Of a DNA stretch of 64,000 nucleotides, positions 62,612 through 63,160 are shown piece by piece. Every line of letters starts with the position of its first letter. Position 1 is the stretch's first letter. The translations under genes were made by a program, and so were the position numbers. The notes under the pieces were generated by a model. The model was not told where the DNA came from. It did not search any database and saw nothing but the letters and a program-made list of their open reading frames with translations. Source of the stretch: a virus; the IMG/VR virus record IMGVR_UViG_3300040801_002923, positions 54,482 through 118,481 of that record. The stretch is one strand, 5' to 3'.

Positions 62612-63160
62612 ATGCGGAACCAGAGAGGATTTCTCGGCGACTTGATCATGATCGCGCTGATCATTGGCATTCTGTTTTCAGTGATGCTTCCCGCGTATCA
62701 GGAGTACATCGAAAAAGCGCAACAGAGAGCCGCACAAGGTGAAGATGTTGTGGTTCCGCCGACTCCTGAAGAACTGACCAACGCAATCTCTCGGACTGCA
62801 AACCAGCTCGTAGAGCGGGCAAATCAACGAGGTGAAGCAACACCAGCGCCGACACCTCCTCAAGTGAACACACCAGCCAACTACAGTCCGATCTGCATCG
62901 GTAATGCTGTGTATCTGCGTAGCGATGCAAATCATTCTGTTGCACCCAAGTATGTGCAATACGGCGGCCGGTTGATTCCAACCGAGTGCGGTTCGGAACC
63001 AGACTACACATCCAACTACACTGCTGTATGCGTCGATGAGGTGATGTACTGGCGCGATCACAGCAGTACAATGGTACCTTTGTACCGTGACTATGCGGGA
63101 CGTCTTGTACCTCAGACGTGCGCGCAATACGAAGTAGAACAGGAACGAAACAGACGATGA
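62612..63160 (+). CDS. Type IV pilin-like N-terminal helix fused to two Cys-bounded repeats
   Basis: MRNQRG|FLGDLIMIALIIGILFSVMLPAYQEYIEKAQ versus type IVa pilin MKxQKG|[27 protein letters not shown]..RAQ. Confidence 0.8.
   Translation: MRNQRGFLGDLIMIALIIGILFSVMLPAYQEYIEKAQQRAAQGEDVVVPPTPEELTNAISRTANQLVERANQRGEATPAPTPPQVNTPANYSPICIGNAVYLRSDANHSVAPKYVQYGGRLIPTECGSEPDYTSNYTAVCVDEVMYWRDHSSTMVPLYRDYAGRLVPQTCAQYEVEQERNRR

Follow-up and report, generated by a model that had tools for sequence, protein, structure and literature searches.

A pilin-derived protein with an altered N-terminal tip and two cysteine-bracketed modules encoded by a probable jumbo phage

Type IV pili are common phage receptors, and they also serve as organelles of motility, adhesion and DNA uptake. 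According to passages of Berry and Pelicic 2015 (PMC4471445), a prepilin needs no more than its class III signal to be inserted into the inner membrane with its leader inside, the Gly before the cut is critical for processing and Glu5 is dispensable for it, and Glu5 mutants do not homopolymerise but are efficiently co-assembled with wild-type subunits. The parts of Sztanko et al. (Cell Rep 2026, PMC12952977) that deal with phage-encoded pilins describe prophage FimU mimics which enter the pilus and block tip-binding phages, and PilA-like proteins, including stubs of 60 residues, in virulent phages, which may join pili or inhibit assembly; the phages with PilA-like proteins in the NCBI search of that paper were not temperate. 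It is also stated in part of PMC6058289 that the levels of pilin in the inner membrane are sensed by PilS-PilR. Here we describe P0001, a protein of 182 amino acids (aa) encoded at 62612..63160 (+ strand, stop codon included) of a 64,000-nucleotide stretch of viral DNA, hereafter the window, which is the last 64 kb of the 118,481-bp IMG/VR virus record IMGVR_UViG_3300040801_002923 (34% complete by CheckV). The window carries a large terminase (TerL) and a helicase, which confirmed that the gene is phage-encoded, as had been stated in an original prediction made from the sequence alone; the open reading frame (ORF) given there was likewise recovered intact, with a ribosome-binding site, an ATG and two relatives, P0002 and P0003.

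The N-terminus of P0001 is, as judged from sequence comparison, pilin-derived. The protein opens with the basic leader MRNQRG (62612..62629, + strand), which ends in Gly and has a predicted prepilin-peptidase cut after Gly6; R5 and G6 are invariant in a three-member alignment with P0002 and P0003. The leader is followed by Phe, exactly as first read, and by a hydrophobic stretch that belongs to a predicted pilin α1 helix (residues 7-42, 62630..62737, + strand), in which the membrane segment F7-L26 leads into the motif PAYQEYIEKAQ and the helix extends as far as LPAYQEYIEKAQ. For residues 7-25 the Kyte-Doolittle maximum was 2.53, and AlphaFold2 predicted a helix at residues 5-41. The key residues of α1 are Phe7, Asp10, Gly19 and Pro27, which correspond to F1, D4, G13 and P21 of the mature protein. 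Two independent alignments, one made by MAFFT with P0002 and P0003 and the other by HMMER against a solved pilin, agreed in placing a one-residue gap directly after Phe+1 and Asp opposite Glu5, so that both the mature numbering and the replacement of Glu5 by Asp were borne out. The distances from Asp to Gly (9) and from Asp to Pro (17) are the same as those from the canonical Glu5 to Gly14 and Pro22. Because the gap lies N-terminal to the acid, the register of the helix from the acid onwards is unchanged and only the tip, from residue 1 to the acid, is shorter; the earlier description of the helix as one residue short thus puts the change in the wrong place. Among 218 distinct pilin-like N-termini, a sample biased by the way the loci were fetched, the acid was found at +5 only, and two N-termini with an acid at +4 were not pilin-looking.

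When P0001 was compared with the sequences of PDB chains, 13 matches were obtained at an expectation value (E) of 1 or below, and all 13 were type IV pilins aligned to residues 1-44; most of the pilin matches stopped by residue 44, and the furthest ended at residue 61. The best of them was the headless Geobacter 'Geopilin domain 1' (E 0.0032, residues 1-44). The closest bacterial matches were ordinary PilA proteins of marine Gammaproteobacteria carrying LPAYQDYIE, with 50-59% identity over about 35 residues, and similarity to host pilus subunits is limited to α1, i.e. to the N-terminal 35-44 residues. Among protein families, phrog_27437 matched residues 1-44 of P0001 (E 1.5e-6, 29.5 bits), and the NCBIfam entry PRK10574 (prepilin-peptidase-dependent pilin) matched residues 1-36 (E 5e-5), with 23 bits against a cut-off of 138. 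The ESM Atlas placed P0001 with a viral N_methyl cluster at a score of 0.76, which serves as a lead only.

Like the type IVa major pilins (PilA/PilE), P0001 has a basic leader ending in Gly, a hydrophobic residue (Phe) at +1, an α1-N segment of about 20 residues with a buried acid and Gly/Pro kinks, and the motif LPAYQ(E/D)YIE. Unlike them, it lacks one residue between Phe1 and the acid, has Asp at mature position 4 in place of the Glu at position 5, does not reach the gathering score of Pfam PF07963 (N_methyl), has no globular α-β head, and is phage-encoded with no pilus genes nearby. Since Glu5, the N_methyl profile and the head domain are defining for pilins and P0001 lacks all three, we did not file it as a pilin. 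The Geobacter PilA-N is also a headless pilin reduced to the α1 helix, but it is a bacterial structural subunit with a canonical Glu5 and no appended modules. The phage proteins P-FimU (of F10-like Pseudomonas prophages) and P-PilA, in the portions of the source that describe them, resemble P0001 as phage genes derived from host pilins with exclusion as the proposed purpose, whereas they are either full-length mimics with a head or bare stubs, and P0001 bears a stalk, two modules and an altered signal. On the basis of these comparisons, P0001 is a descendant of a type IVa pilin and belongs among the phage-encoded pilin-derived proteins, a kind that is already found in print (parts of PMC12952977) and in PHROGs. 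In the literature covered, which did not extend to the supplementary tables of PMC12952977, where related proteins may be listed, no pilin-like protein of a phage was found to carry this module or to have its acid shifted. What is new here is thus the naturally shifted acid with a shortened tip, and a rare tandem module which occurs in three proteins and has no solved counterpart; a kinship of this module with lipoprotein-anchored phage proteins is also possible.

In place of a pilin head, P0001 is predicted to carry a stalk and two tandem Cys-bracketed β modules. The stalk (residues 43-88, 62738..62875, + strand) consists of two Pro/Thr-rich linkers flanking a predicted helix at residues 52-72, which was modelled with low confidence (predicted local distance difference test, pLDDT, 48-62), and its roughly 45 residues could not be aligned with P0002 and P0003. 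Copy 1 of the module (residues 89-126, 62876..62989, + strand), delimited by the repeat alignment, is bracketed by Cys95 and Cys126 and is matched by phrog_7772, with E 1.9e-4 when the whole protein is used and 3.8e-5 when the C-terminal part is used by itself. Copy 2 (residues 134-170, 63011..63121, + strand) is bracketed by Cys140 and Cys170, and AlphaFold2 predicted five short strands in it. A charged helix forms the C-terminus (residues 171-182, 63122..63157, + strand; positions 40-51 of the 52-residue model). The alignment of residues 89-126 with residues 134-170 gave a score of 82, which was reached by 0 of 2000 shuffles (19.7 +/- 4.0). In all of the four known copies of the module both Cys, three Tyr and one Pro are kept without change, in the order C, Y, P, Y, Y, C. 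These repeat statistics, along with the models, support the initial observation that the pilin head had been replaced by Pro-rich linkers and two repeats. The four Cys of P0001 lie on the predicted periplasmic side, consistent with disulfides.

When copy 2 alone was modelled by AlphaFold2 on a four-row alignment (A2), five strands and the C-terminal helix were obtained with a pLDDT of 90.6 and a predicted template modelling score (pTM) of 0.68. The whole of P0001, modelled on the three-sequence alignment, reached a pLDDT of 56, with helices at residues 5-41 and 52-72 and strands in the last third. Searches with these models gave no solved counterpart of the module: the best PDB match by Foldseek had E 0.19, the best of 48,161 representative chains by VIA-align had a Z of 3.1 with none at Z ≥ 5, and the profile of the module had no match at E ≤ 10 among the PDB sequences. 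Faint but recurring structural echoes of aromatic β-hairpin cell-wall/choline-binding repeats were seen at a template modelling (TM) score of about 0.3. The whole-protein model had no match at E ≤ 0.001 in BFVD, the C-terminal part had no feature match in the ESM Atlas, and no further copy of the module was found elsewhere on the 118-kb contig.

A phmmer search of 1,835,955,588 representative sequences returned four proteins at E ≤ 0.001, one of which was P0001 itself. In P0002 (115 aa, E 1.9e-7) and P0003 (114 aa, E 1.3e-4) alike, a textbook prepilin N-terminus that includes Glu5 is followed by a Pro-rich linker and a single copy of the module, and both pass the N_methyl cut-off; P0002 is named 'prepilin-type N-terminal cleavage/methylation domain-containing protein' in one source. 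The fourth match, P0004 (546 aa, E 7.7e-4), was rejected as a chance hit, being a repeat protein with no pilin N-terminus and no module Cys. Among 354 candidates the module profile recovered exactly P0001, P0002 and P0003, each of which is a singleton cluster. Over the first 34 positions the three proteins agree at 16, among them R5, G6, G19, P27 and LPAYQ-YIE, and the modules are 22-37% identical. P0002 and P0003 match phrog_27437 with 52-53 bits, plus five pilin-like PHROGs that P0001 does not match. By sequence comparison, P0001 is the derived member of the three, in which the module was duplicated, the stalk lengthened and the tip altered.

Further relatives were sought in several collections. 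A word-based search of 5.8 billion clusters returned only P0001 itself, both with the whole protein (98 candidates) and with residues 85-182 (2 candidates). There was no match to P0001 or P0002 by tblastn among 50,697 phage records, nor to the region 56000-64000 by megablast against phages. Scans of IMG/VR with alignment A1 (57 stretches), A2 (11), P0003 (44) and the C-terminal 97 residues (2) gave no confirmed relative. A scan of GTDB genomes gave 45 loci, and the seven inspected were all ordinary pilins; a metagenome scan gave at least 80 loci, with all the matches listed being N-terminal only, and did not recover the contigs of P0002, of which there are three, the longest measuring 75,664 bp. 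In the search of viral databases that had been suggested at the outset, the tblastn and IMG/VR scans revealed no confirmed viral homologue of the module; viral mini-prepilins that share the N-terminus were found.

These mini-prepilins came from an IMG/VR scan with P0002, which yielded 11 viral loci (L002-L012), several of them on contigs of 135-292 kb, with matches confined to the N-terminus. They are proteins of 67-94 aa in which a short linker joins a canonical prepilin N-terminus to a single Cys...Cys segment, about 24-28 residues long, and they match up to six PHROGs (27437, 11263, 3433 'pilin', 11596, 13280 and 10597), the 'pilin' family being placed in the category 'moron, auxiliary metabolic gene and host takeover'. 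P0001 shares with them a phage-borne prepilin-type N-terminus and the match to phrog_27437, but it has twice their length, its stalk is long and its module duplicated, and the N-termini of the mini-prepilins are all canonical. Their Cys segments showed no significant similarity to the module of P0001 (hhalign E 0.47), and the hidden Markov model (HMM) of the module found none among 18,298 ORFs. One of the loci lies on G003, an IMG/VR jumbo-phage contig (291,658 bp, 90% complete) whose TerL is 61% identical to that of the window; it encodes a canonical prepilin-like protein of 91 aa (L004 10001-10276) with an unrelated C-terminal part. A close relative of this phage, as indicated by the TerL identity, thus carries a different, canonical pilin-like gene. 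This G003 gene is separated from an upstream NAD-dependent DNA ligase gene by one small ORF (84 aa). In three other contigs (L005 53-1089, L006 8998-10282 and L011 2225-3216) a phrog_200 'lipoprotein' gene (about 265 aa) lies immediately before the mini-prepilin gene, with an overlap in two of the three, and the pair may be a two-gene envelope module; P0001 is not preceded by a phrog_200 gene.

P0001 lies at the end of a 6.6-kb insertion (56545..63160, + strand) between an RNase T-like exonuclease gene, which ends at 56548, and a phosphoribosyltransferase (PRTase) gene, which starts at 63157. The insertion contains a 108-aa ORF, two large exported proteins of 721 and 1119 aa and P0001, the 1119-aa protein having a signal-peptide-like N-terminus and a bacterial Ig domain. 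In G003 the homologues of the dCTP-deaminase, RNase T and PRTase are contiguous (L154, C1:279394-282852; tblastn and ORFs), and no match to the 1119-aa protein was found in G003 or in the phage collection. From these comparisons, P0001 sits in a lineage-specific insertion of envelope-directed proteins inside a block of nucleotide-metabolism genes. Such insertions of envelope-protein genes are a typical setting for host-takeover and exclusion genes.

With some reserve, the reading we favour is that a jumbo phage carries P0001 as an accessory ('moron'-type) gene, whose product is a pilin-derived envelope protein that acts on the type IV filament system of the host. P0001 would insert into the inner membrane like a prepilin, N-terminus in and C-terminus out, and the host prepilin peptidase would probably cut it after Gly6, as the portion of PMC4471445 on processing has Gly-1 as critical and Glu5 as dispensable for cutting. 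The conserved helix would let it join the membrane pilin pool, from which it may be co-assembled at a low ratio into host pili or dock on the pilus machinery, and the stalk with its two modules could in this way hide the pilus or change it as a receptor. The likely benefit, following the logic of the prophage FimU mimics, would be that competing pilus-dependent phages are excluded from the already infected cell. Co-assembly or decoration is more likely than simple jamming of the machinery; jamming had been expected from the loss of Glu5 but is not by itself predicted by it, given the Glu5 mutants that were processed and co-assembled in the relevant part of PMC4471445.

We base this reading on several lines of evidence. 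The N-terminus is specifically pilin-like and not merely hydrophobic, as all the 13 PDB matches are pilins and PilA proteins are the closest; both relatives have textbook prepilin N-termini together with the same module; the helix is conserved while the stalk is unalignable and the modules have diverged; and the acid of the membrane segment is kept at the canonical distance from Gly and Pro, which a plain anchor would not be expected to keep. The gene is also found in a lineage-specific insertion of envelope-protein genes, and the related jumbo phage G003 carries its own, different and canonical prepilin-like gene. Finally, the co-assembly of processed Glu5 mutants with wild-type pilin (passages of PMC4471445) and the phage pilin mimics (parts of PMC12952977) provide published precedents, the latter also for the general idea, put forward in the original prediction, of a phage pilin mimic that excludes competitors.

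A number of findings weigh against such a role. Pfam N_methyl (PF07963) gave no match to P0001 at E ≤ 1, nor did a search of its contig in six frames yield one at E ≤ 10, so that the proposed check by an N-methylation HMM was negative, which bears out that the canonical motif is altered; in the positive control, 10 of 10 relatives and viral mini-pilins passed with 26.0-39.9 bits (cut-off 21.2). The altered N-terminus has thus broken formal membership of N_methyl. Likewise, of the six pilin-like PHROG families matched by the relatives, P0001 matches just one, and weakly; taken with the N_methyl miss, this would mean that the pilin-specific features of P0001 may be decaying. No prepilin peptidase or pilus gene was found on the 118-kb contig, which makes up only 34% of the genome size estimated. 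An N_methyl match over the cut-off is missing from all five of the nearest isolated jumbo phages, so P0001 is not a feature of the clade, and with a family of only three members the argument from conservation is thin. In addition, T5-like Vibrio phages have what may be a similar module fold behind a lipoprotein signal, which makes the anchor look exchangeable and the module the active part.

The last of these points leads to an alternative that we consider only a little less probable, namely that the pilin N-terminus, cleaved or not, is a mere inner-membrane anchor, and that the stalk presents two disulfide-closed modules in the periplasm to targets unrelated to pilus assembly, e.g. the periplasmic face of an outer-membrane receptor, a secretin or cell-wall glycan; the outcome would again be the exclusion of other phages, or a remodelling of the envelope. 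It comes close to the proposed action on pili because of the putatively similar fold behind the lipoprotein signal. When the module was compared with predicted viral structures, its best neighbours were small phage proteins: at the top was an 89-aa protein of the T5-like Vibrio phage PG07 (Foldseek probability 0.99, TM 0.61 over 47 columns, E 0.12, which is not significant), followed by a 78-aa protein (probability 0.97) and a 66-aa protein annotated 'Lipoprotein' (probability 0.82). The PG07 protein (MH645904, AXQ66663.1) is annotated as hypothetical, and an upstream ATG extends its coding sequence to 116 aa (L147 15834-16181, - strand) with a lipobox LVAC and a Tyr-rich Cys-to-Cys segment. 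Conservation extends over at least 97% of this longer frame in 10 of 10 matching phage records, so it is probably the real one and the annotated start of the 89-aa frame is seemingly too late. By hhalign, the profile of the P0001 module was aligned with the PG07 ORF from Cys to Cys over 34 columns, at a P of 0.04 that is not significant, and the profile of the mini-pilin segment matched the first 18 columns of this ORF with a P of 2.5e-4.

The PG07 ORF and P0001 are thus both small phage envelope proteins with a Tyr-rich Cys-to-Cys segment, and both adjoin PRTase genes (a nicotinamide PRTase for the PG07 ORF and a type I PRTase directly downstream of P0001), but in the PG07 ORF a lipoprotein signal takes the place of the prepilin signal and there is only one module. 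This similarity, although not statistically secure, suggests that the small module is the working part and may be hung by phages on different anchors. The loss of the canonical motif in P0001, the long stalk of about 45 residues, unlike the short linkers of canonical viral mini-pilins, and the faint echoes of cell-wall and choline-binding repeats mentioned above point the same way. However, neither the fold nor the profile similarity is significant, the module HMM found nothing in the PG07 genome, phrog_7772 gave only a weak match there to its profile positions 1-22, and the PG07 ORF itself had no informative PHROG match. A plain anchor would moreover have no need for Gly-1, a buried acid, the Gly/Pro kinks and LPAYQ-YIE, all of which are kept, and both relatives retain a perfect prepilin signal above the Pfam threshold.

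Returning to an action of P0001 on host pili, it could also take the form of a poison or decoy, the main idea of the original prediction, in which an altered pilin that cannot be assembled occupies the prepilin peptidase or the assembly platform or terminates growing pili, or, as a variant, mimics a full pilin pool to the sensor kinase PilS and so switches host pilin expression off. The altered tip with Asp for Glu5 and the absence of a head domain to pack in a filament would suit this proposal, as would the discussion in part of PMC12952977 that truncated phage PilA stubs might inhibit assembly and the sensing of inner-membrane pilin levels by PilS-PilR described in part of PMC6058289. Both forms together are nevertheless unlikely in our view, since the Glu5 mutants of PMC4471445, in the passages concerned, were processed and co-assembled rather than poisonous, the two conserved extracytoplasmic modules on a long stalk would be left with no role, and the relatives with the same module have fully canonical and presumably assembly-competent N-termini.

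A still more speculative proposal is that P0001 is a natural chain-terminating or capping pilin and, more broadly, that prepilin and lipoprotein signals are interchangeable means of delivery for one family of tiny disulfide-closed effectors. With its acid in canonical register, P0001 could still dock on the last subunit added at the base of the pilus, and because of the shorter tip its amino terminus would be out of place for Glu5 of the subunit that comes in next, so that extension might stall or every pilus might be capped with two stalked binding modules. That P0001 is no functional gene at all, but a frame open by chance, the remnant of a decaying gene or an error of assembly behind the odd N-terminus, is very improbable and was already disfavoured: it is a singleton cluster on one contig with a degenerate N-terminal motif, but the frame is intact with a good ribosome-binding site, it is co-oriented with the downstream gene and overlaps it, it has a significant internal duplication with invariant Cys pairs, homologues are known, one module folds confidently, and contigs assembled from other runs, all of one sample, show the same sequence throughout the gene. 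These Logan contigs, from three runs, covered 62487-63156 with zero differences, which means that the in-frame gap was not produced by this one assembly, although the sample is possibly the source itself and hence lends the gap no independent support.

Phage proteins that rewire type IV pili shape phage-phage competition and the behaviour of the host. The function that we infer for P0001 follows a general idea already in print, and beside the prophage FimU mimics, one experimentally studied class, and the truncated PilA stubs, P0001 would represent a third design, in which a pilin stalk whose tip and acid are naturally altered bears a rare mini-domain twice, one that folds confidently and lacks a solved counterpart. 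Should the altered tip affect entry into the filament, P0001 would offer a natural means of probing the Phe1-Glu5 contact during pilus assembly; should the module prove common to phage proteins with a lipoprotein anchor, a new family of small envelope effectors of phages would be defined by it.

With regard to the surroundings of the gene, all the genes around P0001 are on the + strand. A strong intrinsic-terminator-like hairpin (62518..62545, + strand; 12 pairs, 8 of them G-C, with a UUCG loop) closes the upstream gene of the 1119-aa protein, and no sigma-70-like promoter was found in 62300-64000, including the interval between this hairpin and P0001. A putative ribosome-binding site, AGGAAG (62602..62607, + strand), was read from the sequence 4 nt ahead of the ATG at 62612. 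The PRTase gene downstream (63157..63600, + strand; Pfam PF00156, E 3.6e-16) overlaps the stop codon of P0001 with its own ATG (ATGA), and a 97-aa ORF matching Pfam DUF3135 (63573-63866; E 1.5e-12) overlaps the end of the PRTase gene by 28 bases. A spanin-like role of P0001 in lysis was considered and dropped, as no partner lipoprotein or lysis genes were found nearby.

By its terminase, the phage is nearest to isolated jumbo phages of 287-385 kb, with Xanthomonas phage XacN1 at 50.5%, and near relatives further include the Stenotrophomonas phages CM1 and RAS14, Xoo-sp13, Ralstonia phage RsoM2USA and Pseudomonas phage PA5oct; the source is therefore probably a virulent jumbo myovirus of a proteobacterial host. 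The block upstream of the insertion comprises a FolE2-type GTP cyclohydrolase I (49606-50697), an Fe/Mn superoxide dismutase (51792-52388) and the dCTP-deaminase-like gene (54485-55048). Farther away in the window, two very large proteins of 949 and 2013 aa (9623-12472 and 17030-23071) have in common a domain of about 100 residues, which matches PHROGs annotated as head decoration, virion structural and tail fibre proteins.

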